From positions 3,202 through 67,201 of IMG/VR virus record IMGVR_UViG_3300025655_000033: 64,000 nt of DNA. The stretch is one strand, 5' to 3'. The notes below the pieces were generated by a model. It was not told the origin of the DNA, ran no database searches, and saw nothing but the letters and a program-made list of their open reading frames with translations. Positions 7,622 through 33,773 of the stretch are shown here, piece after piece; within the stretch, counting starts at the first letter, position 1; each line of letters starts with the position of its first letter. Both the position numbers and the translations under genes were made by a program. Source of the DNA: a virus.

Positions 7622-9112
7622 ATGGGAGCATACGAAAATCCAATTACAGTAATAGATACTGAATCATCTAAGATATTTGCAAATGCAATATCAAATGTTG
7701 GTAAGACAGTAGCTGGTATTATAGACCAAGATAGAGAAAGAAGATCAAAAGCTAAAGAACAAGAAAGAGAGTGGCTTGATTGGACTTTTAAATATACCAA
7801 TGAAAACTTAGATAAAGTATACGATCAACTACAAAGCGTAGGCGTTAATAATACTGAAGCTTTTAATGCTGTTAAAGGGTTAATAGACGAAAAAACTAGA
7901 TTTGGTATCGCTGCAAAAAGAGCGTCTACTATTGAAGAACAAAACGAATTGTTATCTAAGTCTGGAATGTATGAAAAAGGTATAAGATCTTTTATTAATA
8001 TTCAGAAAGGTTTTCAAGAAAACGATGGTATATTTAATACTGAATTTGTAGAGAATATAGATAAAGTAGGAAAAGAAGGTGGAGTACCATTAATGGGTGG
8101 CAGAAACAAAGAATATAATTTAGGCATGTCGATTAGAAGTGGTATCAATCCTGGCAAAGAAGAGTTTTATTTTGATTCTGAGAAAGGTAATTGGAGAGTT
8201 AAATACACTGGTCCTGAGATAACTAAAGCTGGATTAGAAGAAATAGATATGGATGCTGCGGTATTTGCTAGTTATGATCCAGGCACCATACCTGAAATAT
8301 CTAAAAATATTTATAGTTTATTTTCTGAAAAATCAGAAAGCAATCCAAAAGGATTAGGATTTTTAGGTAAAGACGGTCAGTTATCACAACAATACGTTAA
8401 CACTGAAGATATAAAATACCAATACTCTAAAGACGGTAAACTAAGAACAGAGATATTCCCAGCTAAAGTTGGTGAAATGACAGCGCAAGCTACAACGTTC
8501 TTAACTGCACAAGCAGAGGGTTTACTTAGATCTGGAAATCAAGCACAAGTTGTATGGCAAAATGTATTGTCAAGTAGTGATGATGAATTAAAACCAGGCG
8601 CAAGTGGTAGTGGTATATATGAAAAAGAATCTGAAGAAAAATTTATAAAAGCATACGTAGAAAAAGGTTTACAGTCTATACCAAAATATAAAGTTGGTAA
8701 AACATCTGATGCTCCAGTTGTAACCAAAGGCGTTACAAAAGAAGGCGCTGCTCAAGCAAAAGTTTACAATAAAGCTAAAACTTTAACAGACGACATACTT
8801 AGAGCAAACTCAGGTAAAAATTCTAGATTTTTTATAAATAAAGAATTAGATGGTATGTCAATATCTTCTGCTCAATGGAGTGGTGACACTTTAAATCTTG
8901 TTTTAGACAAACCTTCTGGTGATGGCATAACAGAAATACCTAGAAAGTTTGAAATGAATAGAAGGGAAGACGTAGAAGATCTAGTAGCTTTGTTAGCACA
9001 AGAAAGATACGGTAAAGACGCTAGCGCTGAGGAAATAAGAGATATGACCTCTATGATACTTAGAGAAAGACAAGCAGATAGACAACCTAAAATAAACACT
9101 TCATACGAATAA
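7622..9112 (+). CDS. Internal virion protein, unknown function
   Basis: 496 aa ORF between the ejection protein and the giant protein. Confidence 0.45.
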   Translation: MGAYENPITVIDTESSKIFANAISNVGKTVAGIIDQDRERRSKAKEQEREWLDWTFKYTNENLDKVYDQLQSVGVNNTEAFNAVKGLIDEKTRFGIAAKRASTIEEQNELLSKSGMYEKGIRSFINIQKGFQENDGIFNTEFVENIDKVGKEGGVPLMGGRNKEYNLGMSIRSGINPGKEEFYFDSEKGNWRVKYTGPEITKAGLEEIDMDAAVFASYDPGTIPEISKNIYSLFSEKSESNPKGLGFLGKDGQLSQQYVNTEDIKYQYSKDGKLRTEIFPAKVGEMTAQATTFLTAQAEGLLRSGNQAQVVWQNVLSSSDDELKPGASGSGIYEKESEEKFIKAYVEKGLQSIPKYKVGKTSDAPVVTKGVTKEGAAQAKVYNKAKTLTDDILRANSGKNSRFFINKELDGMSISSAQWSGDTLNLVLDKPSGDGITEIPRKFEMNRREDVEDLVALLAQERYGKDASAEEIRDMTSMILRERQADRQPKINTSYE

Positions 9113-9114: not shown

Positions 9115-12100
9115 ATGAATCAAATCTATATCAACCCAGAAACTGGTGAAAAATTTAGTGTTAGTTCTGAAAAATTAGATCAGTTCTTACAAGACTTTCC
9201 TAACGCTGTTTTAGAACAAGAACAAGAGCAACCAGAAGAAGTTGTTACTGAAATGTTTGTTAATCCAGACACTGAAGAGCAATTTAAGGTTAGTGTAAAT
9301 AAAAAAGATCAGTTCTTAAAAGATTTTCCTAACGCTATTCCAATTGATCAAGCGGGAAAGGAAACATCCCCAACTCTGGATGCGGTTGCGGGAAAAGACA
9401 AAGCATCCGATATGGATTTACCATTGGAGGATGGTTTATCGGAATTGAAAGAAGATGATGGCCAATGGGATTGGGGTATAGTAGATTATTTTTCTGATTT
9501 AGCTAGAGCAGCTAAAGAAGGTTGGAGACAAGGTGAACTTGCTGATGATGCTTTTGAAGTTATAAATAAAGGAGCTGATGTAGAATCTAAAGATATTTTA
9601 AAGTTTCTTAAAAGACAAAAAGAAGTTGGTGCTAAAAACATAGGATCAGATGAAATGCGGTCTTGGCAAAAAACTTATGATAAAAATGGTAAAAGTACTT
9701 GGGGTGCTATAAAAGGTATATTAGAAAATCCATCTGTATTAAGCACCTTATTAGTTAGTTCTTTGTCATCACAGTTGAGTGCTATAGTAAACTCAGGTGA
9801 AGTATTAGCTTCTGGTGTTGCAGGTGCAGCCGCTGGAGCTGGAGCTGGTGCAGCTGCTGGAGCAATTGGAGGTCCATTAGCTACTTTAACAGCCGCAGGT
9901 GGTGCATTAACAGGTGCTATGACTGGTAGTATGGCAGCTATGGAAACTGGATTAACTTTTGGTGAATTACTTCAAGAACAAGTTGGAGACGATCTTAATG
10001 ACGATGCAATAAAAGAATTTTTAAATGATCCAGAAAGATTAGCTGATCTAAAAAACAAAGCACTTAAAAGAGGTTTAACTATTGGAGCTATAGAAGGTTT
10101 AACAATGGGTGTTGCTAAAGGTGTTGGTAGCAAGTTAGCTAAAGCTGGATTTAAAAAGATGGCTATAGGTACAGCCACTGGAGTCATAGAGGCTGGTGGT
10201 GGTTCTCTTGGAGAAGTAGGTGGAAGATATGTAGCAGGTCAAGAAATGGATCCTGGTGAAATAGTATTTGAAGGTGTTGCTGGATTTGGAGGAGCTCCAC
10301 TAACATTAGCTTCTCAGGCTAGTAAGCTTAGTAAAACTATAGATAAAGCTACTATAAACAAAATAATAAAAGATACTGATTACAAAGATGTAACAGATGC
10401 TTTTAAAACAGCTGATGTTGGTGAAGCTGAAATCAATATTGCTAAAATTAAAAACTCTACTAAAATATTAGATGAACAAGTAGACTCTAAGGTTGAATCA
10501 GCTGATATAACAGAAGAAGAGGGTAATGAAATAAAACTTAATTTTAGAAAAACTCAACAAGCTGTAAACAAAATAAGTTCATTAAATTTTCCTAAAGAAG
10601 AAGAAGTTAATGCCGTTAGTCTATTAAAAGAAAAAGAAACACTAGAAAACAAAATAAAAGAAGTTGGTGATTCTAGTTTAACTACTATTGAGTCTGATAG
10701 AGTTGATGAAATAAACAAATCATTAAGTGGAATTAGATTAAAACAAAGTATTTCTTTTGCTGAAAAACAAGGTAAAAAACTTGGTTTAGATGTTGAAGTT
10801 TTATCTCAAGAAGAATATGATAAAAAATTCGGTGATAAAGCTAAAGGATCAGAAGGAGTATGGGATAAAAAAAATAATTCTATAACAATCAATAAAGATA
10901 GAGCTTTAGAGGTTGAAGCTGTATCTGTTGGTAGTCACGAACTATTACATGGTATTTTATCTAAAGGTTTAAAAGGTAAAGATGCTTCAAAAATAGTAGA
11001 GGATTTTAAAAACATATTAAGCGAAGAACAAAAAGCAGTTGTAGATAAAAGAATTAAAGAAAACTATACACAAGATTATTTAGATAAAAATCCAGATGAG
11101 TATTTAACTGTTTTTTCAGATGCAATAACTAAAAAAGAAATTAAATTTGAAGAAAACTTATTTACAAAAATAGGTGATTTTATAACTCCAATACTTAGAT
11201 CCGTAGGATTTAAAAATATAAAATTTAACACTGGTAAAGATGTTTACAATTTCATGCGTGAATATCAAAAAAGCGTTGCAACTGGAGAACTAAGTAAGGA
11301 TATAATAAAATCTGTTGAGTTAAAAGATACTGAAGCTTCAGAAGGATTAGCTACATCTATTACAGATAATCTTAATGAGAAAGTTGATAATCTTGTAGGA
11401 AAAAAAGATGAATCAGGAAATTATCAGTATAAAAGTAAAACAGAATTTCAATCATCACCTGAGTTTGTAAACGTATATGATAAAATAATTAGTGGAAAAA
11501 TGATTGATCCATTAATTAGAAGAGGCATAGAAGGTGATCAAGTTTATGGCAAACCAGTTGAAAACTTTATTGAAGAAGTTAAAGATGGTTTGACAGAGGT
11601 TTTAATGCGTTTTGATCCAACTGAAAATAATAGTTTAATTGGATTTATAAACAGTCAATTAAAATTTAGAAAAGGTGACGTGCTTAAAAAATATAAAGCG
11701 CAACAAACTAAATCAATTGATACAGCAGCTGGTGAAGTAGGATCTATAGCTGAATTAGAAGCTGAAGATACATCCGAAGCTTTACTAGAAGAGTCTATGG
11801 CTGAAGAAAGACGTCAAAGTGATCTTATAAAGGCAGAGGAAATAATCGGTTCAGATGATTTTGTTAAAGCAGCTAAAGAAGAAGTTGCTAGTAAATTAGA
11901 TCAAGTTAAACCTGGAGAATCAACTTTTAAAAATGTAAAAGGATTAGTTGCAGATACATTAGCTAAAGAAATAGGTATACCAGCTAAGAAAATAATGGAC
12001 ACTACTGCTAACATGTCTAGTCAAGAGATGGGTGTGTCTATAAATTGGATTAAACAAAACGCCAATATGATTGCTAAAATAATGCCACAAGGCGCTGTTT

Positions 12101-15100
12101 TAGATTCAGCTAGTGAAAAACTACTTGGTACCGCAACTGGTATTGCAAACTCAATACTTAAAAATCCAAAACTATACACTAAAGACTCAAGAATAAAAAA
12201 AGGAGCTGGATTATCGCCATTTGTTAAAAACAAAAACATAACCGGTGAAGACGTATTAAATGCAGTAGGAATAGTAGATGGTGAACCAAAACCAGGTATT
12301 GGACCTAGAACACCGGAAGGACAAGCTGTAAAAGGTGTACTAGCCATGTATGAGAAACTTGTTTCTAATTCCTTATTAAGACAAGAACTAATTGAACAAG
12401 GTGAATCATCTAATATTATTCAAGATATTGGAGCTGGTAAAGGAGATTTGATGTTTAGTATGTCATCAGAAGACATTAAACTATTAAATGAGTACGATAT
12501 AGATGGATACAAACTTGAATCAAAAGCAGACATTAATAAATATATATCTGATTTAAGAAAATTAATACCATTACTAAACACGGATGATTTTAAAATACTA
12601 AATGCCACAGTATTACAGTTTTCTAATTTAGACACAAAAGAGCTTGTAAAATATCTTCAAAGTGAATTAAAAAAACTAAGCAAGTCAAAAGAGTTAACTA
12701 GATTTGTTACTATAAGTAGAACTCCAGTTAGAAAACAATTTGGAAGTACTTTCGAAGAATTACAAGATAAGATACAAATACCAGGTTATGTAGAAGAATA
12801 CAATGACAAAAACTCATTAGTGTTTGAAAAAATGTGGTATACTATAAATGACATATTAAGTGATTCAAAAAATAAAGATTTAGCTGTACCTATAGTTACT
12901 TTCTTAGCTAATTCTCAAATTGAAAAAGCAAATCCGCATAGATTAGGAGCTCCATTAATAGCATATGAGTTATCTAGCGGTAGAATAGATAGTTACGAAC
13001 ACGCTATGCCTTCTGTTGAAGCTTATAGAAGATTAATAAAAGCTGCTTTAGATCCTAACATTGATTTCTTTAAAGAGTTTGACTTTGTAAAAAATAATTA
13101 CAAGCTCATGGCTATAACAAAAGAAACTGATTTAAAATTACTAGCTAATGGTAGTAATAGTTTCTTTGATCCTAAGTGGAAAAATTGGTGGCAAAGATAT
13201 TTTAACGACAAAGTAGCTAAAGATAAAGGTGGTATAGATCCTAATAATATAATTTCTATAGAAAACAAAATAAGTTTAGCTGAAGAATTTAATATTGATA
13301 AAGAAGGAAATGAAGATCTTGCTTTTAGTAAAAACTTAAACAGAGAATTTAACGATATACTTCAAACAACAACTGGTGTTGATTCTAAAAAAACATACAG
13401 TAAGATCGGTGCTGAAATGGCGGGATCTAAAAAAGGTAGGTTTGATTTCTTTATACCACCTGGAGCTGAAGACTTTATAGGTTTAATATACAAAACTTTA
13501 GGTAAAGGTGAAATAGGTGATATGCAATTAGCTTGGTACAAGAAAAACTTCTTTGATCCATACGCTAGAGCTATGGCTGCTGTTACTAAAGATAGAGTTG
13601 TAATGGCTCAGAAGTTTAAAGATCTTAGAAAAGAACTTAAGATAGTCCCTAAAAACTTAAGAAAAAAATTACCAGGAGAAGGTTTTACGCAAGAACAAGC
13701 TGTTAGAGTTTATATATGGACGAAACAGGGTGAAAAAATACCTGGTTTAAACGAAGGTGATTTAAGTACGTTAAATGACTACGTAAACAAAAATCCTGAA
13801 TTAAAAGAATTTGGTGACAGACTTATAGCTATAACTGGAAAAGATGCTTACGTTGGTCCAAGAGAAGGTTGGACTGCTGGTACTATAACTACAGATCTAC
13901 TAGATACTGTTAATGGTAGCAAGAGAGCAATGCATTTGGAGCAATGGCAAGACAATGTTGATGCTGTGTTTACCGAAGAGAACTTAAATAAACTAGAGGC
14001 ATTATACGGTAAGTCTTATAGAGTAGCATTAGAGAATATACTTAAAAGAATGAAGAGCGGTAGAAACAGATTGTTTACATCGGACTCTTTAACTGGTAGG
14101 TTTGTTGATTGGATTTCTAATTCAATTGGTAGTATCATGTTCTTTAACAGTAGATCTGCTATACTACAAACAATATCTTCTATTAACTTTATTAACTTTA
14201 CGGATAATAATATAATAGCCGCTAGTAAAGCATTAGCTAATCCAAAACAGTTTGCTTCAGACTTTATGACGCTTATGAACTCTGAGTTTCTAGTAGACAG
14301 ACGTAATGGTCTTAGAATAAATGTCAATGAAGCTGATATTGCCAACATTGCTGCTACATCTAAAAACAAAGCTAAAGCTTTTATAAGTGAAATGCTTAAA
14401 CTAGGTTTCTTACCTACCCAAATAGCGGACAGTTTTGCAATAGCTTCTGGTGGCGCAGCATTCTATAGAAACAGGATTAACACTTACTTAAAACAAGGGT
14501 TAAACGAAAAATCTGCAGAACAAAATGCTATGAGAGACTTTAGAGAAATTGCTGAAGAATCTCAACAATCCAGTAGACCAGATAAAATATCACAACAACA
14601 AGCTGGGCCATTAGGACGTATTATATTAGCTTTTGCCAACACACCAGCTCAGTATGCTAGAATTATTAAAAAAGCTGCCTTAGATCTTAAGAATGGACGA
14701 GGGGATAGAAAGACAAATATATCAAAGATAGTATACTATGGAGTAGCACAAAACTTATTGTTTAGTGCAATGCAAAATGCTTTGTTCGCTTTAATGTTTG
14801 ATGGAGATGATGACGAAGAAAAAGCAGAAGAAGAAAACAAGAAGTACGGTAGAGTTGCAAACAGTATGGCGGACAGTTTACTACGAGGTATGGGATTTGC
14901 TGGTGCTGTGACTTCTGTAGTTAAAAATGCTGCATTAAAAATAGTAGAAGAAAGCAACAAGGACATACCTAAGTATGAAAAAGCTGCTGCTGAATTAATA
15001 AAAATATCACCACCTATATCTTCTAAACTATCTAAAGTTGAATCAGCATTAAGATCAGCAAGCTGGGATAGAGATAAAATAAAAGAAGCAGGTTTAAGCA

Positions 15101-15369
15101 TAGACAATCCTGCTTATATGATTGGTGGAAAATTATCATCTGCAGCTCTTAACATACCACTAGATAGAGCGCTAACTAAAGTAGATAACATACAAAACGC
15201 TATGTCAAAAGAAACAGAAATTTGGCAAAAATTTGCGTTGTTGGCTGGTTGGCAATCTTGGGAATTAGGTATTGAAGACGAAGATGATAAAACTAAAAGA
15301 GGATCAACTAAAAGAAAAACATCAGAAAGAAAAACAGTTAAACGCAAAACAGTAAAAAGAAACAAATAA
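9115..15369 (+). CDS. Giant polyvalent internal virion protein (Gly/Ala hydrophobic region, HExxH zincin, sigma-region-2-like module, HNH-like motif, C-terminal helical domain)
   Basis: 2084 aa; HELLH at ~10936; 'LMRFDPTENNSLIGFINSQLK' at ~11600; 'YEHAMP' at ~12995; last gene of the ejection cluster. Confidence 0.7.
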   Translation: MNQIYINPETGEKFSVSSEKLDQFLQDFPNAVLEQEQEQPEEVVTEMFVNPDTEEQFKVSVNKKDQFLKDFPNAIPIDQAGKETSPTLDAVAGKDKASDMDLPLEDGLSELKEDDGQWDWGIVDYFSDLARAAKEGWRQGELADDAFEVINKGADVESKDILKFLKRQKEVGAKNIGSDEMRSWQKTYDKNGKSTWGAIKGILENPSVLSTLLVSSLSSQLSAIVNSGEVLASGVAGAAAGAGAGAAAGAIGGPLATLTAAGGALTGAMTGSMAAMETGLTFGELLQEQVGDDLNDDAIKEFLNDPERLADLKNKALKRGLTIGAIEGLTMGVAKGVGSKLAKAGFKKMAIGTATGVIEAGGGSLGEVGGRYVAGQEMDPGEIVFEGVAGFGGAPLTLASQASKLSKTIDKATINKIIKDTDYKDVTDAFKTADVGEAEINIAKIKNSTKILDEQVDSKVESADITEEEGNEIKLNFRKTQQAVNKISSLNFPKEEEVNAVSLLKEKETLENKIKEVGDSSLTTIESDRVDEINKSLSGIRLKQSISFAEKQGKKLGLDVEVLSQEEYDKKFGDKAKGSEGVWDKKNNSITINKDRALEVEAVSVGSHELLHGILSKGLKGKDASKIVEDFKNILSEEQKAVVDKRIKENYTQDYLDKNPDEYLTVFSDAITKKEIKFEENLFTKIGDFITPILRSVGFKNIKFNTGKDVYNFMREYQKSVATGELSKDIIKSVELKDTEASEGLATSITDNLNEKVDNLVGKKDESGNYQYKSKTEFQSSPEFVNVYDKIISGKMIDPLIRRGIEGDQVYGKPVENFIEEVKDGLTEVLMRFDPTENNSLIGFINSQLKFRKGDVLKKYKAQQTKSIDTAAGEVGSIAELEAEDTSEALLEESMAEERRQSDLIKAEEIIGSDDFVKAAKEEVASKLDQVKPGESTFKNVKGLVADTLAKEIGIPAKKIMDTTANMSSQEMGVSINWIKQNANMIAKIMPQGAVLDSASEKLLGTATGIANSILKNPKLYTKDSRIKKGAGLSPFVKNKNITGEDVLNAVGIVDGEPKPGIGPRTPEGQAVKGVLAMYEKLVSNSLLRQELIEQGESSNIIQDIGAGKGDLMFSMSSEDIKLLNEYDIDGYKLESKADINKYISDLRKLIPLLNTDDFKILNATVLQFSNLDTKELVKYLQSELKKLSKSKELTRFVTISRTPVRKQFGSTFEELQDKIQIPGYVEEYNDKNSLVFEKMWYTINDILSDSKNKDLAVPIVTFLANSQIEKANPHRLGAPLIAYELSSGRIDSYEHAMPSVEAYRRLIKAALDPNIDFFKEFDFVKNNYKLMAITKETDLKLLANGSNSFFDPKWKNWWQRYFNDKVAKDKGGIDPNNIISIENKISLAEEFNIDKEGNEDLAFSKNLNREFNDILQTTTGVDSKKTYSKIGAEMAGSKKGRFDFFIPPGAEDFIGLIYKTLGKGEIGDMQLAWYKKNFFDPYARAMAAVTKDRVVMAQKFKDLRKELKIVPKNLRKKLPGEGFTQEQAVRVYIWTKQGEKIPGLNEGDLSTLNDYVNKNPELKEFGDRLIAITGKDAYVGPREGWTAGTITTDLLDTVNGSKRAMHLEQWQDNVDAVFTEENLNKLEALYGKSYRVALENILKRMKSGRNRLFTSDSLTGRFVDWISNSIGSIMFFNSRSAILQTISSINFINFTDNNIIAASKALANPKQFASDFMTLMNSEFLVDRRNGLRINVNEADIANIAATSKNKAKAFISEMLKLGFLPTQIADSFAIASGGAAFYRNRINTYLKQGLNEKSAEQNAMRDFREIAEESQQSSRPDKISQQQAGPLGRIILAFANTPAQYARIIKKAALDLKNGRGDRKTNISKIVYYGVAQNLLFSAMQNALFALMFDGDDDEEKAEEENKKYGRVANSMADSLLRGMGFAGAVTSVVKNAALKIVEESNKDIPKYEKAAAELIKISPPISSKLSKVESALRSASWDRDKIKEAGLSIDNPAYMIGGKLSSAALNIPLDRALTKVDNIQNAMSKETEIWQKFALLAGWQSWELGIEDEDDKTKRGSTKRKTSERKTVKRKTVKRNK

Positions 15370-15885: not shown

Positions 15886-17661
15886 TTATCCATCACAAGA
15901 AATACAGTCTGGATCCATAGCTTTTGCTGCAATATCTCCTCTTAAAACTGATTCAGTTCTTGTGTAATACAAAGTCTTTACTCCTTTCTTCCATGCTTCA
16001 AAGTGAACTTGATTAATCCATTTTGGTGTAGCAGTACTTGGAAAAGCCAAGTTAAGACTTACTGATTGATCTATATATTGTTGACGTATACCAGCTTGAC
16101 TAACTAACTCTAACTGATTTATTTCCTTGAAAGTTTTAAATACATCTTTAACCGTATCATAACCAAGTAGCATGTCTTGCTCTGATGCGTCTGGTAAATA
16201 TACTAATTTTTTATTAATATATCCCCAATCATCTAAAATATTTAAATCTTGAATACTTCCTCCATCTTCAAGTATCTTGTTCCAGGTTTCCTCTGTATCA
16301 ATCCCTACTTTCTTTAAAACTTTAATAAGTTCTTTATTCTTTCTAATAAACGTACCTTTTGCAGATTGCTCTGTAAAAACATTAGCAGCCCAAGGCTCAA
16401 TACCTGGACTAACATTACCAGATAGTTTACTATTTGATACAGTAGGTGCAATAGCCCTAAGGTGAGTATTCCTAAGTCCAGTATCACGACACCAAAGAGG
16501 TTCTCCGTATACCTCGGCAAGTTCACGTGAAGCCCTTTCGCTTTCGATTTTAATCTGGCTAAATATTCTCCTAGTCTCAAACTGAGCTTGAATCCCTTCG
16601 AAAGGTATTCCATTTTGTTGGAGGTAAGTGTGCCACCCAAGGACTCCAAGACCAAGCGCTCTTCCTTTTTCCGCAAAACGAACTGAGTTTTCAAATCCTT
16701 TAAGGCCTTTAGCCTTTTGTATAAATTCTTCAAGTACTCCATCTAAAAACCATATTGCGTGGTAGATTAAATTAGTATCTTTCCACTCGTTATACTTACT
16801 TAAATTAAGAGAAGATAAACAACAAACAAAACTATGGTTTTCATCTGTATGCAATGTAATCTCACTACATATGTTTGTCATATGCACTTTTAAGCCATTT
16901 TTCTTGTATGCTTCAGGATTAGATTTATTTGTATTTCCTTTAAATAAAATATAAGGTTCTCCAGTTGCTTTACGCTTCTGTAGTAATTTACTCCACTTTC
17001 TTCTTGCCTCAGCATCTCCTTCTTCTAGTTTCCTCATAAACTTATCACCAACAACAGCACATTGATGTAAGTTTAAAGACTGACGATTAACATCTCCCTT
17101 AGGCTCTCTTATTTCTAACCACTCTTCAAAGTCACCGTGATCTATGTTAATGTTAACACTAGCTGCTCCTCTTCTAACTGATCCTTGATTTGTTGCAAGT
17201 ATAGTAGAATCGTATACTTTACAGAAAGGTACAACACCATCTGATGTACCGTTACCTGTGATTTTAGCTCCAGCTGGACGTATCATATTAATACCAATAC
17301 CAACTCCACCACCGTGTTTAGCTAACAACATCATTTCAAGGTTCTTACCACCAATCTCTTGTATGCTATCACCAACATCAATACCAAAACAACTAATAGG
17401 TAAACCTCTATCTGTACCAGTATTAGAAAGCACTGGAGAAGCTAAGTTTAACCAACCGTTCCATATATACTCAAAAAACTTTTCAGTTAATTCTGGCTTA
17501 TATAAACGCTTAGCAACAGTTGATGCTACTCTCATATAAGCATCCTTTGGTGTTTCATTTGGTAATAAATAACCACCAATGATGGTTTTCTTATATACTT
17601 CTGTATTACCCCACGTAGGATAATCAACTCCTTTTACCCAATCATTATTCCACATCTCCAA
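15886..17661 (-). CDS. nrdA: Ribonucleotide reductase class I alpha subunit, no ATP cone
   Basis: 'LPISCF', 'TNICSEI', 'AIAPTVSNS', 'KTLYY' and C-terminal CxxC; true start may be 17655. Confidence 0.95.
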   Translation of the reverse strand: MEMWNNDWVKGVDYPTWGNTEVYKKTIIGGYLLPNETPKDAYMRVASTVAKRLYKPELTEKFFEYIWNGWLNLASPVLSNTGTDRGLPISCFGIDVGDSIQEIGGKNLEMMLLAKHGGGVGIGINMIRPAGAKITGNGTSDGVVPFCKVYDSTILATNQGSVRRGAASVNINIDHGDFEEWLEIREPKGDVNRQSLNLHQCAVVGDKFMRKLEEGDAEARRKWSKLLQKRKATGEPYILFKGNTNKSNPEAYKKNGLKVHMTNICSEITLHTDENHSFVCCLSSLNLSKYNEWKDTNLIYHAIWFLDGVLEEFIQKAKGLKGFENSVRFAEKGRALGLGVLGWHTYLQQNGIPFEGIQAQFETRRIFSQIKIESERASRELAEVYGEPLWCRDTGLRNTHLRAIAPTVSNSKLSGNVSPGIEPWAANVFTEQSAKGTFIRKNKELIKVLKKVGIDTEETWNKILEDGGSIQDLNILDDWGYINKKLVYLPDASEQDMLLGYDTVKDVFKTFKEINQLELVSQAGIRQQYIDQSVSLNLAFPSTATPKWINQVHFEAWKKGVKTLYYTRTESVLRGDIAAKAMDPDCISCDG

Positions 17662-17872
17662 GATCTAATTTAGTTTCTGATTCTTCTTTTATTTTTTCTT
17701 TCAACTGCTCTATAGCTTCTTCATAACCAGGCATTAACTTAACAGCCTCTAAAGTACCTACAGATAGATCTTTTAAATAAGTATTTTCACTTAATAATTG
17801 TTGTACAACATTAATTAATGCTTGTATCTTTTTTTCTAGTAGATCTTGTCTACTTTGTTTTTCACCTTTCAT
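17645..17872 (-). CDS. Hypothetical protein between nrdB and nrdA
   Basis: 75 aa coiled-coil ORF filling the gap. Confidence 0.6.
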   Translation of the reverse strand: MKGEKQSRQDLLEKKIQALINVVQQLLSENTYLKDLSVGTLEAVKLMPGYEEAIEQLKEKIKEESETKLDLGDVE

Positions 17873-17892
17873 ATTATTTAATTTAATTTAAT

Positions 17893-18861
17893 TTACCAAA
17901 TATCTTCAAAATCTTCACCTTCTCCAGCTTTCGAGTAATCAGTCGGACGAATAGCAAAAAAATCAGTATGAGTAATCCCCCCGGTAAGATGATAGAACCA
18001 GTCAAGATTGCTTGCTGCCTTTTTGTCAAATTCAAAGTATTCCCCGCTGTCCCTGTAACCGAGTTCAATAATTTTTTCATTGAGTCTTTTTCTAATGAAT
18101 TGTTTGAGGTCGTAAGCTTTAAGGTTTTCGATGTCTCCAAGCTCAAACATTTTATCAATATAGTTTTCTTCTGCTTTAAGCATTGATTCTGCTGCATCTA
18201 ACACTTCTTCTTTACAATCGTTTAATAATGTAGGATTTTCTTCACACATGTGTCTGAATAATTGACAACCCATTTTAGAATGCAGTGATTCATCACGTAC
18301 GCTCCATTTCATTTGTTGTCCTACACCTTTTAAAAGATTTCTAAGCTGAAAGCTATAAAGCACAGCAAAAGCAGAATAAAGAGAAACACCTTCAGCGAAA
18401 GCCGAAAATATTGCAAGAGACCTAGCAATGCCACCAACTTCACTACCATCGTAAGAAACGAGGGCTTCGAATCTCTCCATAGTGGCCTCATCTTGTAAAA
18501 AAGCTTCAAAATTTTCAAGTCCAAGTGTTTCATTTAAATAAGAATAAGCTACAGCGTGTATTGTTTCTTGTGATCCAAACATCATAGCCATTTGTTGTAT
18601 CTCATGTTTTGGAAACCAACCAACTACTTTTTGCGTCCAGTAATCAGACACAGCGCATTCTGTTTGAGCAAAACCTAAAAGTATATTACCTACTAGGTTT
18701 TTTTCTTTTTCATTTAACTTTTCATTCCAATCTTTTACATCACCTGACATAGATATTTCAGTATGTAACCAAAAAGCTTGAGCTTGTTTTAACCAACCTT
18801 CTGTGTAGTAAACTGGGTATTCAAATGGTTTATATGGTATTCTAGGAGTAAATAATGACAT
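17893..18861 (-). CDS. nrdB: Ribonucleotide reductase class I beta subunit
   Basis: Ferritin-like ligands 'QTECAV', 'QETIHAVAY', 'AEGV', 'RDESLH'; C-terminal 'DFFA..PTDY'. Confidence 0.95.
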   Translation of the reverse strand: MSLFTPRIPYKPFEYPVYYTEGWLKQAQAFWLHTEISMSGDVKDWNEKLNEKEKNLVGNILLGFAQTECAVSDYWTQKVVGWFPKHEIQQMAMMFGSQETIHAVAYSYLNETLGLENFEAFLQDEATMERFEALVSYDGSEVGGIARSLAIFSAFAEGVSLYSAFAVLYSFQLRNLLKGVGQQMKWSVRDESLHSKMGCQLFRHMCEENPTLLNDCKEEVLDAAESMLKAEENYIDKMFELGDIENLKAYDLKQFIRKRLNEKIIELGYRDSGEYFEFDKKAASNLDWFYHLTGGITHTDFFAIRPTDYSKAGEGEDFEDIW

Positions 18862-19155: not shown

Positions 19156-19326
19156 TTATTCTATTTTTATGTTATATTTATCTTGCATTTCAACAAGTTC
19201 TCTATATTTAATCTTACCTCTTATTTCCCAACTCCATTTAATCCACTTATCAATTTGACGCTGGGCATATTTCTGTCTAGCTACTTTCTTCGCTTTTCCA
19301 GGATCAATTGTACTGTTCGATCGCAT
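19156..19326 (-). CDS. Hypothetical basic 56-aa protein overlapping the endonuclease 3' end
   Basis: Hand-translated ORF MRSNSTIDPGKAKKVARQKYAQRQIDKWIKWSWE...; stop abuts the next ATG. Confidence 0.5.
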   Translation of the reverse strand: MRSNSTIDPGKAKKVARQKYAQRQIDKWIKWSWEIRGKIKYRELVEMQDKYNIKIE

Positions 19327-19733
19327 TCGTTTTGATTTTGTGGTTTATATAAAGTAATATTAGGAAATTGTTCTGAAACTAATCTTTTAAATAACTTCCA
19401 TCTCATTGGAAAAGACTCATTTGCTCTACCTTTTGTTTCTATTATAAAATCATCTCCAATAAAATCAGGTGTATACTTTATTGGTAGTATTCTTTTGCTA
19501 CCTCTATTAACGTAATCACCTTTACCATTTGCTTGTCTTTCATATACTTCGTTTTCAAAATGAAAACCATTTAACAGAACAAACGTTTCTCCTTCATACT
19601 TAGATCTTATCTTAGCTTTTTTTAAAGCCATATACATATAGCGTTCTAGTCCTGAAGCAAAATTATGTCCATCATAAGATATTTTTTTAGAAACAACTGG
19701 ACCTCTTTTTTTTGATCTTTTTTTCTTAATCAT
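19281..19733 (-). CDS. T7 endonuclease I-like PD-(D/E)XK nuclease (Holliday junction resolvase)
   Basis: 'FASGLE', 'KYE', 'YTPDF...IIETKG'; start assumed at MIKKKRS. Confidence 0.85.
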   Translation of the reverse strand: MIKKKRSKKRGPVVSKKISYDGHNFASGLERYMYMALKKAKIRSKYEGETFVLLNGFHFENEVYERQANGKGDYVNRGSKRILPIKYTPDFIGDDFIIETKGRANESFPMRWKLFKRLVSEQFPNITLYKPQNQNECDRTVQLILEKRRK

Positions 19734-20019
19734 AATGTTCCCCTGTGTTGCCGTTTTGGGCAATAATATCCATTCTAGCTATTAAAGCTTCTTCTTTTAA
19801 GTCTTGAACTTCTTCTTTTGCTGCTTGCAAATAAAGTATTGCATCCATTAACTCTTCTTGTACATCGTTTAAATAACCAAAAAGATCTTTGTGACCACCT
19901 TTTCTTTCATTGTCTAATGTTCTACCGTATTTAGCAAAACCTAAATCTGATCTTGATACAAACTTGTCTACTACTCTTTCAACAACTGGATCTCTAAATG
20001 TAACCTCTTTCTTTTTCAT
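19726..20019 (-). CDS. Small all-alpha NTP pyrophosphatase-like protein
   Basis: 'G.AKYG.TL' and 'QEELMDAILY' acidic helix pattern. Confidence 0.55.
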   Translation of the reverse strand: MKKKEVTFRDPVVERVVDKFVSRSDLGFAKYGRTLDNERKGGHKDLFGYLNDVQEELMDAILYLQAAKEEVQDLKEEALIARMDIIAQNGNTGEHYD

Positions 20020-20816
20020 TACAATGTTTGTTTTACAAAAGTTCCATTAATCATTTTACCTTTTCTACTTTTAATAACATTGTAAGCAGAATCAACACAA
20101 TCTTCTATTTTAAGGTTTTCAAGCTTAGCTAGATTAGTTAATACAACCACTATATCACCAATAGCATCTATAATCTCTGGTTTATCATTGTTAAGCAAAG
20201 CTTTAGCAAGTTCACCAGTTTCTTCAAGTAGTTTTATATATTGTGTTTTGCTGTCACCTTTAGTGTATATACCTTTTTCAGCGGCCCACAATCTAATAAG
20301 ATCATATATATTTTTTTCAATACCATTCACAAGACCTTCGTGTAAGCCTGGTTCAGCTACAAAAGCTTCATGAAAAGCCTTGTTATATACAAAACACCTG
20401 TCTTTATCATACATAGATGTTACTGAGTTGTGAGCTAACCAATTTAATTCTTTTTTTGACTTTAATTCAAAATCACCAAAAGAAGTTTCCCATTTAAAAC
20501 CAATACCAAGTTCTTTTTTAAGAAATTTCTTTAAATCAATTAATGGTACTGGAAAAGTTGTTGTTTGTTCTGTTACGTTTAATTTCATTTTATTTGATTT
20601 TTTATTCATTAGATCTCTATATGTTTGTCTATCAACCTTATAGCCATAAGACTTTTGAAGTTCTATCTCCTTAGATGATATATAACTTATATCTTCACTT
20701 GAATCAAGAACTTCGTACTCACCTGGTTTATACCCTTGGGCAACCGTAACTCTTCTATCAAGATCACGTGTAACCCCTATTTTTTTACCCGGGATATGGT
20801 ATAAATAGTACATCAT
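20019..20816 (-). CDS. MazG-like NTP pyrophosphohydrolase with N-terminal GIY-YIG-like region
   Basis: C-term 'KLLEETGELAKA...EIIDAIGDIVVVL' MazG motif; N-term 'YYLYHIPGKKIGVTRDLDRR'. Confidence 0.8.
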   Translation of the reverse strand: MMYYLYHIPGKKIGVTRDLDRRVTVAQGYKPGEYEVLDSSEDISYISSKEIELQKSYGYKVDRQTYRDLMNKKSNKMKLNVTEQTTTFPVPLIDLKKFLKKELGIGFKWETSFGDFELKSKKELNWLAHNSVTSMYDKDRCFVYNKAFHEAFVAEPGLHEGLVNGIEKNIYDLIRLWAAEKGIYTKGDSKTQYIKLLEETGELAKALLNNDKPEIIDAIGDIVVVLTNLAKLENLKIEDCVDSAYNVIKSRKGKMINGTFVKQTL

Positions 20817-21484
20817 AATTTGTTGTTATATAAGTGTAAGTTGTGTGCGTGATGGTAATAAGTACCAACTGGCAAACTAAGCTCTCTAGCAACCAATTGT
20901 TGTAACATTGAAAAACAATATTGATCATTACAGAAACCATACCAGAGGTCATTAGAACGCATATAGACAGACATATTTAATCTATTGTCTAATATCGTAA
21001 ATTGAACAGCATAAGTACAAGGCGTATCGTTTTGATAAGTGTTATGTTCTTTTGCATCGTAAATAGAAATCGCAGCTTGACGCGTTGATGCGTTAGAACG
21101 CAAAGCGTGTATAGCATAATCGAGCTGGCCGTTTCTATTCCACTGCCAACCATAGTTAGATCTAACATTACCGTTATCATCTTGCATTTTCTCCCATATA
21201 GGAGGAACTTTACCGTATATCTCTTTGAGTTTATTTAAACTAGGATCTCCAGATAAATACCATTGCCACTCTGCTGCTGCGTAAGCTTCGTTAAAGTTTC
21301 TTTCTTTATTTGCTATTGAAATATTTTTAGGATATTCCATAGTAAAGCCTACATTGAATAAAGCTTTTGTACCAGCAAACTCAACACCATCTGTCCTTAT
21401 TTTTTGATTAAAGTAATCAAATGCTTCTGATGCGTTCTTAAAATTTGTTTTTATATTTTCCATAATAATAAAGATAATACTCAA
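20813..21484 (-). CDS. Thymidylate synthase-fold enzyme, probable dCMP hydroxymethylase/methylase
   Basis: 'DTPCT', 'MRSNDLWYGFCND', 'NLHLY'; Asp at the substrate-specificity position; start may be MENIKTNF. Confidence 0.8.
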   Translation of the reverse strand: MSIIFIIMENIKTNFKNASEAFDYFNQKIRTDGVEFAGTKALFNVGFTMEYPKNISIANKERNFNEAYAAAEWQWYLSGDPSLNKLKEIYGKVPPIWEKMQDDNGNVRSNYGWQWNRNGQLDYAIHALRSNASTRQAAISIYDAKEHNTYQNDTPCTYAVQFTILDNRLNMSVYMRSNDLWYGFCNDQYCFSMLQQLVARELSLPVGTYYHHAHNLHLYNNKL

Positions 21485-21689
21485 ATAATTTCTCCCATAT
21501 AACTACTTTTTTGTAAGTCTCAGGGGATCTGTTTGTTTTGTTGTTAATTGTGATTTCTATAAACCAGTTGGTTTCGTCTTTAGCTCTTGGCGATATGTGT
21601 ATATTATTTTTAATACACCAACTATAAGCTTCGTGTTCTTCATCAGTGAAAATGTATTGACCCATTGGGTCTTTCTTTATAACTCCCAA
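21438..21689 (-). CDS. Hypothetical protein
   Basis: 83 aa ORF overlapping both neighbours in the operon. Confidence 0.6.
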   Translation of the reverse strand: MGVIKKDPMGQYIFTDEEHEAYSWCIKNNIHISPRAKDETNWFIEITINNKTNRSPETYKKVVIWEKLFEYYLYYYGKYKNKF

Positions 21690-23395
21690 GGTAATGAATT
21701 TTCTTCTAACTTAACAGGATTTATTGGAATAAAACAACCTGACTTATGTTCCCACTTAAAATGAGCTTCTTCACCATTTTGACCTAGGTTTTGAAACTTA
21801 ACTTTAAGTACTTTACATTTAACTGTTTTATTAACGTAATCCCTATGAACTAATAGACCATGATAAGAAGCATCGTACCATTCACCACCACCTTTTATAT
21901 TATACATAGTTGGTTCTTCTATTTTACCATCTTTGTCCTTATACATCTTTGTAGGGTGAGCTACTATAATAACTAATACATCATACTTTTTAGCAAATAC
22001 TTCTATCTTAGTTAAATACTCCATAGTGTACCTGTTTACATCTTCTGTTTTAGAATCTGTGTCACGAACTTTATTAAATGGATCTATAATAAGGCATTTA
22101 ATGCCTTTACGTTTAACAAGCTCAGCACCCTTACGAAGTACTGACTCAAGTGTATAACGTTCCATGTCAATAAAAAAGAAGTTATCATTTACATGATTAG
22201 CTATTTGGTTCCATTTGCTAGAACCAATGTCTTCTTTAGTGGGCATGCCTTGCCATACCTTTCGCATAAGCTTATGTGCGTGAAGATAAGTTGGCGCATT
22301 CTCAGGACTAGCATATGCCGCCTTCCATCCATACTTAGCGTTATATCCGACAACCATTTGATCGACGAAATCACTTTTACCGGAAGAAGGTATACCAGTG
22401 ACAGTAATAAATTGACCAGTGTAAGTTGAAAAGATTTCATCAAAGTTAGATAAGCCAACTTGAAATCCGGGCTTAAAGCCATTTGTGACGAAATCAGTAA
22501 TCTCCCCTTCAATGTCCTTAAAAGTGGTGACGTGTTCAAGAGGTACTGGTTTTGCTGAGGTAATACGCTGCGATAGTTTTTCTTTTCCATACTTTAATAA
22601 ATATTCGTTTGCATCTTTGCAGTCTTCAAAACTAGCCATGTAACAAACCTCAGCGCCAAGACGTCTTATTAATTCTTGTTGTAAAGCTTGACCAGCTTCA
22701 TCTGAATCTGTAGCTAATATTATTTTATTTTTATCTACAAAGTAATCAATGCAATTATCTAGGTAATCTAAATTGTTAGATGTAAGTGTAGCACCATTAG
22801 GTACTGAAACAACGTTTGGTATTCCAGCTTCGTGTAGTGCAAGCACATCCATTTCACCTTCTGTTATGACGCAATATTCATAACCCACTATTGCATTTAT
22901 GTTATAGAAGACTTTCTCAGCCCCTTTAAATAATTTAAAGTTCTTTCTTCCGTCTCGATACTTGATATTAACAAGATCTTCACCAACGAAATAATTAAAC
23001 TTTATAACATTCTCGGCCTTACCGGTTTGTGGCATCCATTCAGATCCTTCAGTAACTTTTAAAGCTGATAGAGTGGAGGCAGAAATACCTCTACCTTTAA
23101 ACCACTCTTCAACTTTAGTTCCAGGTACATTTATAACAAATGGCTCTGGCTTTATGTATACCTTATCTACATCACCTTTTCTTTGGTAAGTGTGTAGTTG
23201 AAATGAATTGTTGCAGTTATGGCAAGTACCGAGACCCCGTTCCCAATCATAAGATGCACATTTAGAGTTCTTATTCTCAGGTTTCCTATCGTGAGAACAT
23301 AAAGGACAAGTCCCTTGTGTTTTACCCACTTCTAGGTCATATTGATTAAACTGGTCGATCAAAAATCCATTGATCTCCGTACTGTTAACTTGCAT
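21677..23395 (-). CDS. T7 gp4/Twinkle-type primase-helicase
   Basis: Zn finger CPLC...CHNC, TOPRIM 'ITEGEMD','ATDSDEAG', Walker A 'GIPSSGKS', 'IIDP','VAHP'. Confidence 0.95.
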   Translation of the reverse strand: MQVNSTEINGFLIDQFNQYDLEVGKTQGTCPLCSHDRKPENKNSKCASYDWERGLGTCHNCNNSFQLHTYQRKGDVDKVYIKPEPFVINVPGTKVEEWFKGRGISASTLSALKVTEGSEWMPQTGKAENVIKFNYFVGEDLVNIKYRDGRKNFKLFKGAEKVFYNINAIVGYEYCVITEGEMDVLALHEAGIPNVVSVPNGATLTSNNLDYLDNCIDYFVDKNKIILATDSDEAGQALQQELIRRLGAEVCYMASFEDCKDANEYLLKYGKEKLSQRITSAKPVPLEHVTTFKDIEGEITDFVTNGFKPGFQVGLSNFDEIFSTYTGQFITVTGIPSSGKSDFVDQMVVGYNAKYGWKAAYASPENAPTYLHAHKLMRKVWQGMPTKEDIGSSKWNQIANHVNDNFFFIDMERYTLESVLRKGAELVKRKGIKCLIIDPFNKVRDTDSKTEDVNRYTMEYLTKIEVFAKKYDVLVIIVAHPTKMYKDKDGKIEEPTMYNIKGGGEWYDASYHGLLVHRDYVNKTVKCKVLKVKFQNLGQNGEEAHFKWEHKSGCFIPINPVKLEENSLPWEL

Positions 23396-25109: not shown

Positions 25110-25874
25110 CTACAGATAGTCAATTACTTGCGATGGTTCTACGTTAGCAATTAACTTCTCTACAGCTTGCTTTTTAATCTCAGATATTCTAACGTAAGCA
25201 CTAGGTCCTTCGATGCCTAAAATATCTGCAATTTGATTTGCTGAATGCTTATCACAGTTTAATCCATAACTTAATCTAAGCACTTCAAACTCTCTTTCGT
25301 TTAAATGTTTTTTCAATAAACTAGTTAAGTATAAGTTTAATAAACCTATATTATATGGTTCAGACTGATCAGGTATTTGATGCATGGTGTTATCTTCATC
25401 ATCATCATTTATTTGCTCGTCAATACTAAGGAATATAGAATTAAAAAACATTGCAACCATTTTCTTATCTTTACCATTGTCTTTCCTAATTTCATTTAGT
25501 TTATGCTCTGGTATTCTAATATCTCCCCTGTTTATGTCTATGGCTCTTCTAATGGCTCCTTTTATTCGTTTAGACAGGAAAGACTTTAATGTTTTTTCCT
25601 CGTCTTCTGAGTTGTCTATTGTGTCCCATATTATTTTGTCAACAGCCTTAATCAATCCTAAACTTCCGTCTTGTATTAAATCTGTAATGTCCATAACACC
25701 GGAAGCTTGTTGTGATGTTGAAAACTTCCTTGCTATGTTTTCTACTAAAGGCAAGAACTTAATTACAAGTTCGTCTCTAGTATACTCGTTAAATGATTTT
25801 TCGCCGACACGTTCAATTGAAGACTTTACATCTTCTTTATATCGTACGTAATTCTGAATGTTGTACTTTTTCAT
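25110..25874 (-). CDS. Phage-encoded sigma-70 family RNA polymerase sigma factor
   Basis: Region 2 'LPLVENIARKF...DLIQDGSLGLIKAVDK...RIKGAIRRAI', 'IRIP', 'LSID', region 4 'LNEREFEVLRLSYGL...IADILG...VRISEIKKQAVEKL'. Confidence 0.9.
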   Translation of the reverse strand: MKKYNIQNYVRYKEDVKSSIERVGEKSFNEYTRDELVIKFLPLVENIARKFSTSQQASGVMDITDLIQDGSLGLIKAVDKIIWDTIDNSEDEEKTLKSFLSKRIKGAIRRAIDINRGDIRIPEHKLNEIRKDNGKDKKMVAMFFNSIFLSIDEQINDDDEDNTMHQIPDQSEPYNIGLLNLYLTSLLKKHLNEREFEVLRLSYGLNCDKHSANQIADILGIEGPSAYVRISEIKKQAVEKLIANVEPSQVIDYL

Positions 25875-32720: not shown

Positions 32721-32924
32721 TTATTTAATGTATGTTAGTGATAAAAATGCGGCGGATATAAAGGTTAAGCCATTGTAGTTAAACCACTCGCGAACTGCAG
32801 AATCTTTTGCTACTTCGGCGAAATTATTAGGTAAGTTAGATACAGTGAAACCTATGTAACGCTTGCGATTTGAGCGTATTAGAGGTAATTTAGAGATTTT
32901 AGTAGTTTTAATAGTTAAAGACAT
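32721..32924 (-). CDS. Hypothetical early protein
   Basis: 67 aa ORF downstream of promoter motif at 32962. Confidence 0.55.
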   Translation of the reverse strand: MSLTIKTTKISKLPLIRSNRKRYIGFTVSNLPNNFAEVAKDSAVREWFNYNGLTFISAAFLSLTYIK

Positions 32925-33087
32925 AGTTATATATTTTAAGTTATTAATTAATGTATATTTATATTATCAATACTATAACGTATTATTATTGTAATGAAGG
33001 TGGTTTATTATTTATTAATAGAGAAGGGTAGAGGGATATAATACTCTGTCTCTCTACGCAGAGATATAATTCTCCTTACAGAAAAGT

Positions 33088-33131
33088 GTGACATTAGCTA
33101 GTTAAATAGTAGGGTAACAGGCTATTGTCAC
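33088..33131. promoter_or_regulatory. Dyad element copy 2
   Basis: GTGACATTAGCTAGTTAAATAGTAGGGTAACAGGCTATTGTCAC. Confidence 0.75.
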
Positions 33132-33238
33132 CCCTTTAATTTGTCTAGTGATTTCTCTAATTCCATTATATATTCCACTAACTCGTTTTTATCCCACTCC
33201 ATTAGTGCTGAGTATTCGCTTAAGATCATTGCTTGCAT
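33128..33238 (-). CDS. 36-aa early peptide
   Basis: MQAMILSEYSALMEWDKNELVEYIMELEKSLDKLKG, ~20 nt downstream of promoter motif at 33259. Confidence 0.5.
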   Translation of the reverse strand: MQAMILSEYSALMEWDKNELVEYIMELEKSLDKLKG

Positions 33239-33308
33239 AATTATTTATTTTATATATATATTATCTTATGGTGTACGTATTATTTTTGTTGAGCGCAAGT
33301 GTATAGCA

Positions 33309-33539
33309 TTAAGAGATAATTTCCCTTAACGCTACTGGAACACTTGTTGAAGAAGTATAGCTTTTATATTTAATAAAGCAAGGCATCACTTCGAGTTTCG
33401 CTTGCATAATTTTATACGCTTCGTCGTGATTGTAAGTTACTTCTTTTCCACTTTTGAATTTCACTTTAATAATAGTGTTAGAGCCAATAAGTGATTTTCT
33501 AATTAAGAATCTTTTTGAGTTTAAAGTTGAATTTTGCAT
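33309..33539 (-). CDS. Early protein, paralog 1
   Basis: 76 aa, close paralog of 34040..34282. Confidence 0.75.
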   Translation of the reverse strand: MQNSTLNSKRFLIRKSLIGSNTIIKVKFKSGKEVTYNHDEAYKIMQAKLEVMPCFIKYKSYTSSTSVPVALREIIS

Positions 33540-33773
33540 AGTTATTTAATTTAAGTTATTAATTATTATTTTTTAGTTACATATATATTATCTTGTAGCG
33601 AACGTATTATTTTTGTCGAGCGTAGCGAAGTGCTATACACGCCTGGCTGCGTTAACTATATTGCATGACGGAGTCTACTCTTCCGACGCTATTTCAAAGT
33701 CAGGCCTTATATATTATCTTAGTAGCAGCGTATTACTTTTGTAATCAAACGCTCCTGTAGAGTTTGTGAGGTC

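Follow-up and report, generated by a model that had tools for sequence, protein, structure and literature searches.

Does the phage genome in IMG/VR virus record IMGVR_UViG_3300025655_000033 encode the synthesis of a modified cytosine, and if so, of which one? The question is raised by positions 19726-21484 of the stretch analyzed here (the window; 64,000 nucleotides, bases 3202-67201 of a 67,201-bp record that CheckV rates as complete), which are filled by three overlapping, co-oriented open reading frames (ORFs) on the minus strand. A first-pass annotation had proposed here a modified-cytosine pathway, with 5-hydroxymethylcytosine (5hmC) or 5-methylcytosine (5mC) as the outcome, consisting of a ThyA-fold enzyme acting on deoxycytidine monophosphate (dCMP) and two MazG-fold genes. 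The ThyA-fold enzyme with its quoted motif and one MazG domain were borne out by our analysis, while the second pyrophosphatase-like ORF was not. Judging from its active-site residues, the ThyA-fold enzyme is best read as a 5-hydroxymethyl-dCMP (5hm-dCMP) synthase, an assignment in which we have good confidence. It is moderately likely that the locus is a pre-replicative cytosine-modification module, in which 5hm-dCMP synthesis would be coupled to a MazG domain that depletes deoxycytidine triphosphate (dCTP), and the phage DNA probably carries a modified cytosine.

The ThyA-like gene (20813..21463, minus strand) encodes a predicted dCMP hydroxymethylase of 216 amino acids (aa) from the ATG at 21463, and its open frame extends to a TTG at 21484 (223 aa). 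The ATG is probably the true start because of the lengths of the close homologs and the DNA: homologs are 212-224 aa long among the 120 matches listed, and a 97%-identical one has 216 aa. The ORF 20813..21484 holds exactly YMRSNDLWYGFCNDQYCF, the motif on which the first-pass annotation had relied. It matched Pfam Thymidylat_synt (PF00303) with an E-value of 1.6e-25 (90.3 bits, cut-off 24.3; profile positions 25-214 of 266) and PHROGs phrog_160 with 7.9e-43, and its best matches in PDB were MilA CMP hydroxymethylase (4.1e-18), a bacterial thymidylate synthase (1.1e-17), and T4 dCMP hydroxymethylase (7.8e-17). No further PF00303 match was present in the genome. The family was placed by means of pairwise BLAST and of signature residues, which in the 223-aa numbering are D153 (L143 in Escherichia coli), C156 (C146), T157 (H147), S177 (S167), D179 (D169), and D187 (N177). 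In the HMMER and control alignments, D187 aligned with Asn177 (PFN) of a solved thymidylate synthase, as had been claimed, and with the specificity Asp of MilA and T4 gp42, and C156 aligned with the catalytic Cys. Five active-site residues, including D153, C156, D179, and D187, are invariant in all 80 aligned family members, and therefore this pattern is not a matter of chance.

Residue rules are available by which the product of such an enzyme can be predicted. N177D (E. coli numbering) confers selection for dCMP, the acidic substitutions L143D/E correlate with a hydroxymethyl instead of a methyl product, and D169N marks flavin-dependent 5-hydroxy-dCMP synthases (PMC13326640). In the MetaGPA study, positions 177 and 147 discriminate best between modified and unmodified contigs, and Asp177 ThyA domains are enriched on modified contigs, co-occurring with PF01503 PRA-PH (PMC8670742). 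We aligned six control enzymes from named phage records with the window protein and read positions 143, 169, and 177, which were L/D/N in RB69 td, D/D/N in SPO1 gp29 (a dUMP hydroxymethylase), D/D/D in T4 gp42, E/N/D in the short ThyA homolog of RB69 (5-hydroxy-dCMP synthase type), N/D/D in the PaMx74 homolog, and D/D/D in the VPE25 homolog. All the controls conform to the rules of PMC13326640. The window protein has D/D/D, and its residue at position 147 is Thr, likewise in T4. Its Asp at L143 together with the retained Asp169 would favour a 5-hydroxymethyl over a 5-methyl or 5-hydroxy product. As for the sugar, Ser (S167) plus Arg (R126') indicates a deoxyribo substrate, as opposed to the Ala/Lys of CMP hydroxymethylases (MilA study; PMC5175136). 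The window protein has the Ser at S167, in MRSND, and an Arg in ...STRQ... that is aligned to MilA K133 (the R126' position), and these equivalents argue for a deoxyribo substrate.

The same Asp at N177 fits equally well with a dCMP methyltransferase of the Xanthomonas phage Xp12 or Pseudomonas phage PaMx74 type, in which case the genome would carry 5mC; N177D mutants of canonical thymidylate synthase actually methylate dCMP (literature cited in PMC8670742). The signature of this type is Asp177 with a non-acidic residue at 143, while position 143 is Asp in 80/80 members here, as in the hydroxymethylases T4 gp42, SPO1 gp29, and MilA (the last according to PMC13326640). PaMx74, a phage that replaces C with 5mC (10.1101/2024.12.05.627091), was the sole methylase control, and its homolog (298 aa) has Asn at L143 and a longer C-terminus. 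The window protein ends right after HLYNNKL, so that the whole C-terminal folate-closing segment of thymidylate synthase (the lid), which would shield the methylene intermediate, is absent. Because this end is common to 80/80 aligned members and the closest cultured homolog, from Bacteroides phages, has only 226 aa, the missing lid is, judging from the alignment, characteristic of the family and does not reflect truncation. In addition, no 5mC/dCMP deaminase is found nearby, whereas 70% of the deaminase genes on modified contigs lie near ThyA (10.1101/2024.12.05.627091). We consider a methyltransferase quite unlikely; of the two bases proposed by the first-pass annotation, the dCMP-selecting residues would allow both, and Asp143 appears to narrow the choice to 5hmC.

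A flavin-dependent 5-hydroxy-dCMP synthase (RB69 gp48/DLP3 gp80 type) and an ordinary thymidylate synthase share the ThyA fold with the window protein, and the RB69 enzyme (238 aa) is short as well. The diagnostic D169N change of the former is, however, not present, as D179 was found in 80/80 members and Asn in the RB69 homolog in the same alignment. The canonical ThyA signature is lost at three positions, with Asn177, Leu143, and His147 replaced by D, D, and T, the lid is absent, and the cut-offs of the NCBIfam thymidylate-synthase equivalogs were missed widely (74 bits versus 108-427). Either function is very improbable for this enzyme.

Among known systems, T4 gp42 dCMP hydroxymethylase (EC 2.1.2.8; PDB 1b49/1b5e) has the same ThyA fold, the active-site block PCT...MRSND...G F.ND, and Asp at all three diagnostic positions (L143, D169, and N177), and neither protein has the C-terminal lid of thymidylate synthase, while the two are only 36% identical across 132 residues (E 2.9e-18) and the T4 enzyme is longer (246 versus 216 aa). 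The closest homolog in cultured phages is the 226-aa protein of the Bacteroides phages BF503P2/BF486P2 (45-47% identity over ~210 residues), which is also of the short form, has an identical GFCNDQYCF block, and reads D/D/D; its label "deoxycytidylate 5-hydroxymethyltransferase" is an automatic annotation. These phages differ in that they also carry a dUTPase and another Asp177 paralog, of 268 aa, and the neighbours are not named MazG in the annotation of these records, which were not searched for the MazG fusion described below. In BF503P2 (OP172671.1), the two Asp177/Asp143 ThyA paralogs (5166-5972 and 8046-8726; 268 and 226 aa), both automatically annotated as dCMP hydroxymethyltransferase, and the dUTPase lie within 4 kb. 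The homolog of Enterococcus phage VPE25/VFW is also D/D/D (36% identity over 208 residues, E 3.4e-36), but has 281 aa with a C-terminal extension, and in VPE25, which has its own Pol III alpha subunit, its neighbours are a dUTPase and two sugar enzymes, one of them a T4-like beta-glucosyltransferase. VPE25 DNA is cytosine-modified, as it resists bisulfite conversion (PMC4999554).

What, then, is the partner of this enzyme? The next gene (20019..20816, minus strand), which shares an ATGA stop/start overlap with the ThyA-like gene, had been described as a MazG-fold hydrolase. A genuine MazG domain is present, but it makes up only the C-terminal third of a conserved three-domain fusion of 265 aa, and the full-length fusion directly adjoins the ThyA-like gene in 77 of the 80 related IMG/VR viral loci whose neighbouring genes we compared. 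The AlphaFold model of the fusion has three domains (mean predicted local distance difference test, pLDDT, 83; 84.8 in a separate model of residues 1-166): a putative GIY-YIG/T5orf172-like domain 1 (residues 1-72; 20601..20816, minus strand), a conserved, confidently modelled alpha/beta domain 2 (residues 80-155; 20352..20579, minus strand), and domain 3, a MazG-type all-alpha nucleoside triphosphate (NTP) pyrophosphohydrolase and candidate dCTPase (residues ~168-265; 20022..20315, minus strand). The first two had been missed by the first-pass annotation.

Domain 3 clearly has a MazG fold with its acidic motifs intact. It matched Pfam MazG (6.7e-7) and PRA-PH (PF01503; 1.5e-5), both above cut-offs, over residues ~180-252, as well as the MazG-like phrog_1992 and phrog_715, and its VIA matches included 1vmg (Z 9.9, root-mean-square deviation 2.3, 81 aligned) and the S-2L MazG 7ody (Z 9.6). 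Residues E198, E199, E202, D217, and D221, which we take to be metal ligands, are invariant, and E214 is nearly so. With DCTPP1 (RS21-C6) and other MazG proteins this domain shares the fold and the EExxE...ExxD acidic set, and DCTPP1 structures, some with dCMP or 5-methyl-dCMP, were among the top Foldseek matches (none at E ≤ 0.001); it differs in sequence (16-28% identity) and in being always fused behind the GIY-YIG-like domain and domain 2. T4 gp56 dCTPase, a member of the all-alpha NTP pyrophosphohydrolase superfamily, is a functional analog. A dCTP-depleting role of the domain is plausible. On the MetaGPA contigs, the same ThyA and PRA-PH Pfam families co-occur (they are adjacent here) with the same Asp177 signature, but a dCMP deaminase or carbamoyltransferase, neither of which was found here, is often added (PMC8670742). 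A similar annotated trio, consisting of an NTP-PPase-like protein, a "pyrimidine hmase", and a dCMP deaminase, is present in the uncultured phage MW202621.1.

For domain 1, the model points to a GIY-YIG/T5orf172-like fold. The top four of 48,161 chains in VIA were all GIY-YIG nucleases, with modest Z scores of 3.9-5.4 (I-TevI 5.4, the 5hmC-specific endonuclease PD-T4-3 4.6, UvrC 4.0, and T4 EndoII 3.9), and the BFVD matches were mostly GIY-YIG, T5orf172, or intron endonucleases from rank 4 down (E 0.0085 and weaker). Pfam T5orf172 was matched by 31/66 members and MUG113 by 25/66, with a best E of ~0.001 and all below cut-offs, and the Atlas neighbours of the fusion carry T5orf172. Y6, R22, and E50 are invariant, and K12 stands at the position expected for the second Tyr, as mapped by eye from the motif order and not by superposition. 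Foldseek of the N-terminal model against PDB gave nothing at E ≤ 0.001, and a profile search of this region against PDB gave one match (E 0.25). For domain 2 there was no VIA match above Z 3.1, no Foldseek match in PDB, and no Pfam family common to the members. A search for a stand-alone N-terminal region returned 532 matches of 30-144 aa, largely fragments. Two other explanations of the fusion were rejected. Insertion of a homing endonuclease between ThyA and MazG is contradicted by the full-length fusion being kept in 77/80 loci, and a middle part that represents the missing C-terminus of ThyA by the finding that no member matches Thymidylat_synt even at E ≤ 5 and that domain 2 is modelled with three helices, unlike this tail.

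The third ORF (19726..20019, minus strand) encodes a 97-aa protein, hereafter p97, and its gene follows the fusion gene in 69/80 loci. The ORF is real and conserved, with the invariant motifs RS..G..KYG and QEE.MD..LY, but its description as pyrophosphatase-like was not supported. It matched phrog_11184 (unknown function; 2.6e-9) and no Pfam or NCBIfam entry, and no Pfam family was common to 61 close or 150 diverse homologs. Its PDB profile matches were only to DCTPP1, at E 1.2-1.3 over one QEE..D..LY helix, the best E of a further profile search was 0.78, and the hhalign probability of relatedness to the MazG fusion was 2.4%. Because only one MazG domain could be demonstrated, the claim of two MazG-fold genes lacks support. 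The p97 family is large, with at least 7999 homologs and at least 3553 representative clusters at 50% identity; the 120 among the matches listed were all unnamed or "hypothetical" and had no Pfam domain. A Pfam match to EncFtn-like in 16/61 members (best 5.6e-4) was not borne out among the diverse homologs, where it fell to 2/150. Single MazG and DUF1064 matches among the 150 diverse homologs look like fusions or read-through with neighbours. In P0450, a 241-aa protein of the representative library that has no MazG domain, a p97-like domain (residues 1-70) is fused to a homolog of residues 3-152 of the fusion (28% identity, E 1.5e-10), which suggests that p97 and the GIY-YIG-like/domain 2 region are functionally connected. 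We speculate that p97 is a conserved, genetically linked accessory of the module.

As to distribution, the ThyA-like gene has 393 relatives in IMG/VR and at least 8000 candidates in the protein database, which may include ordinary ThyA. In the IMG/VR record IMGVR_UViG_3300030380_004057 (76,964 bp), the ThyA-like gene occurs at both ends (in contig ranges 66623-76964 and 3849-13022), which hints at a concatemer or at terminal redundancy of the assembly. The MazG domain was matched by 1009 phage records, none of which covers ≥80% of the fusion in cultured phages. At least half of the sampled words were found in 14 public DNA runs, and RNA-library contigs overlie parts of the stretch at 90-99% identity. 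Among the latter, two contigs of one marine metatranscriptome library (X16) cover 19608-20270 and 20525-21019 (~93-96% identity), that is, the p97/MazG and MazG/ThyA-like junctions. These are compatible with expression of related phages at sea, although DNA can be present in RNA libraries and the contigs are hence no proof. The public runs consist of Illumina contigs and reads, and Illumina data cannot show base modification.

Does the genome encode the other activities needed for a modified genome? Genome-wide family scans covered 55 ORFs and 8 large ORFs with Pfam and 20 ORFs with PHROGs. No deoxynucleoside monophosphate (dNMP) kinase, glycosyltransferase, deaminase, DNA methyltransferase, ThyX, dUTPase, or DNA polymerase was found by Pfam and PHROGs in the 67,201-bp record, nor was a carbamoyltransferase or sugar-nucleotide enzyme found by Pfam; the first-pass observation that the window has no recognizable glycosyltransferase or dNMP kinase is thus extended to the whole record, as far as these two databases see. 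The sole convincing Walker A motif in the genome is in the primase-helicase. In comparison with T4, the genome has no recognized gp1 kinase, gp56-type dCTPase, glucosyltransferases, or phage polymerase (Pfam scans). Since no kinase or polymerase was found, use of the modified nucleotide would require kinases and a polymerase of the host, and domain 2 and p97 become of interest.

Several points weigh against a 5hmC module. The missing dNMP kinase is the first, as T4, RB69, and DLP3 pair the enzyme with such a kinase, and the RB69 or DLP3 enzyme alone yielded only trace product in E. coli DNA (PMC13326640); this trace-only incorporation is the main weakness of the idea of a fully substituted genome, although 5-hydroxymethyl-dC (5hmdC) and 5-hydroxy-dC (5hodC) are incorporated by E. 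coli once the nucleotides are supplied (PMC13326640). The same scans also failed to reveal a DNA polymerase or any 5hmC-tailoring enzyme such as a glycosyltransferase. The product is predicted from three residues, and only 5/7 ThyA homologs predicted to make 5-methyl-dCMP (5mdCMP) did so (10.1101/2024.12.05.627091). The C-terminus is ~30 residues shorter than that of T4 gp42, and therefore cofactor handling may differ. The specificity of the MazG domain for dCTP is unreadable from sequence, its structural likeness to DCTPP1 being no greater than to other MazG proteins, and MazG domains also occur widely in phages that are not known to modify their bases. Finally, neither protein was matched in the three sequenced phages that are closest in terminase (MW202828.1, Flavobacterium phage elemoB, and Maribacter phage Panino), an empty answer that proves little but would make the module accessory.

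Some of these points are what would be expected if the locus reshaped the nucleotide pool with no modification of the genome, the MazG domain serving in house-cleaning or recycling and the ThyA-like product being an intermediate or a decoy that is hardly incorporated. A house-cleaning or pool-recycling role has been proposed for cyanophage MazG. The lack of a recognized dNMP kinase and phage DNA polymerase, the wide spread of MazG in phages, and the absence of the module from the nearest relatives are all consistent with such a role. To our knowledge, however, free 5hm-dCMP is used by no bacterial pathway except nucleoside-antibiotic synthesis from CMP, and the Ser/Arg pair favours a deoxyribo substrate. 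DNA modification is suggested by the tight pairing with MazG in 77/80 loci and by the statistical association of Asp177 ThyA together with PRA-PH with modified contigs (PMC8670742), and E. coli polymerases incorporate 5hmdC and 5hodC once they are made (PMC13326640). We assign this explanation a low probability.

It is also conceivable, though rather unlikely, that 5hmC is only an intermediate, which unannotated proteins would turn after replication into a hypermodified base, for instance a glycosylated or carbamoylated one. In most of the known 5hmC phages the hydroxyl is decorated (PMC8670742; PMC13326640), dozens of ORFs in the genome have no family, and the module includes two conserved, linked parts, domain 2 and p97, that lack an explanation. 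The absence of any glycosyltransferase, carbamoyltransferase, kinase, or sugar-nucleotide enzyme from the Pfam scans, and from the PHROGs scan of 20 ORFs, stands against it.

Returning to the preferred 5hmC module, we propose the following course of events. Phage ribonucleotide reductase (RNR) and host enzymes would supply dCDP and dCTP. The MazG domain of the fusion would hydrolyze dCTP to dCMP and pyrophosphate, by which the canonical precursor is depleted and the ThyA-fold enzyme is fed; in T4, gp56 depletes dCTP likewise. C156 of the 216-aa enzyme would attack C6 of dCMP, selected by D187 for its cytosine, and after transfer of the methylene from methylene-tetrahydrofolate, water and not hydride would resolve the intermediate to 5hm-dCMP, a proposal that we make because Asp153 is present and the C-terminal lid is absent. 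Host kinases, or a phage kinase that escaped recognition, would raise the product to the triphosphate, and the phage primase-helicase would recruit a host polymerase for the incorporation of 5hm-dCTP. As a result, 5hmC would replace some or all C in the phage DNA, which would resist restriction. T4 EndoII cuts unmodified DNA, and as a speculation the GIY-YIG-like domain may do the same.

A bolder version of this scheme, which is tentative and to us rather unlikely, is that very abundant uncultured marine podophages run a minimal three-gene "cytosine exclusion and replacement" system. The lid-less 216-aa dCMP hydroxymethylase would produce the modified nucleotide, and a GIY-YIG nuclease acting on unmodified host DNA and a dCTPase would be combined in one polypeptide. 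The function still missing would come from domain 2 and/or p97, which might act as a regulator or, say, as a non-P-loop 5hm-dCMP kinase, and C would be fully replaced by 5hmC via the host polymerase, with no glycosylation.

The three ORFs sit within a long string of replication and nucleotide-metabolism genes on the minus strand. Its order is primase-helicase, 83-aa ORF, ThyA-like gene, 265-aa MazG fusion, p97, DUF1064 resolvase-like gene, three tiny ORFs, RNR small subunit, 75-aa ORF, and RNR large subunit. The primase-helicase (Toprim plus DnaB-like; 21677..23395, minus strand) forms the upstream end and matched Pfam Toprim_2 (4.8e-16) and DnaB_C (1.3e-8). The 83-aa ORF (21438..21689, minus strand) lies directly upstream of the ThyA-like gene, overlaps its start, and is found in 59/80 loci; it has no Pfam, PHROG, or NCBIfam match and is mentioned for context only. 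The DUF1064 gene (19281..19763, minus strand) encodes an endonuclease-I-like protein, a probable Holliday-junction resolvase (Pfam DUF1064 6.6e-7; phrog_190 2.2e-12); it overlaps the end of the p97 gene and is kept in 68/80 loci, a matter of context that does not imply membership in the pathway. The class I RNR pair (15886..18861), for deoxynucleotide supply, forms the downstream end and consists of the small subunit (17893..18861, minus strand; Pfam Ribonuc_red_sm 6.5e-56) and the large subunit (15886..17661, minus strand; Pfam Ribonuc_red_lgC 5.9e-91).

The source is probably an uncultured marine phage of flavobacterial type, a lytic podophage. Its terminase is closest to those of podophages of Flavobacterium ("elemo"), Cellulophaga, Tenacibaculum, and Maribacter, the G+C content across the genome is 30-39%, and no tRNA genes were found in it. 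The genome also encodes an Erf-like annealing protein, a PD-(D/E)XK exonuclease, its own sigma-70-like factor (25110..25874), and a GroEL-type chaperonin (50778-52334, plus strand; phrog_5725, E 3.2e-133). Near the chaperonin, one small ORF among the 55 scanned matched Cpn10 (E 9.5e-14), which is a listed core gene of the proposed "Pervagoviridae" (PMC8776804). The crAss-virus muzzle domains crAss_MUZ and crAss_MUZ_C were matched by one or two of the 55 ORFs, and two very large ORFs on the plus strand (9115-15369, 2084 aa; 1820-4972, 1050 aa) had no Pfam match at E ≤ 0.01. At ~32900-35200, where a leftward early/replication block gives way to a rightward structural block, there are only tiny ORFs and the AT and GC skews change; a control or origin function is possible for this region.

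Systems in which an Asp177 ThyA homolog and an NTP pyrophosphatase modify cytosine before replication are already known, T4 being the textbook case. What is new here is the lid-less minimal enzyme, the GIY-YIG-like/domain 2/MazG fusion, and the linked p97 family, and also that no kinase, polymerase, or tailoring enzymes were found and that the family is apparently abundant in aquatic viromes with no cultured member. We found no description of this specific ThyA-like/fusion family in the literature, supplementary tables not being covered by our search.

If the 5hmC reading is true, 5hmC-type DNA would extend beyond T-even-like phages and a few Gram-positive ones and be common in ocean viromes, and virome methods based on restriction, bisulfite, or transposase would have to be read accordingly. 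The family would also offer a compact hydroxymethylase for biotechnology, as well as a natural case in which modified deoxynucleoside triphosphates are handled with neither a phage kinase nor a phage polymerase. For functional assignment, the GIY-YIG-like/domain 2/MazG fusion and the p97 family, huge and unnamed, provide concrete targets.

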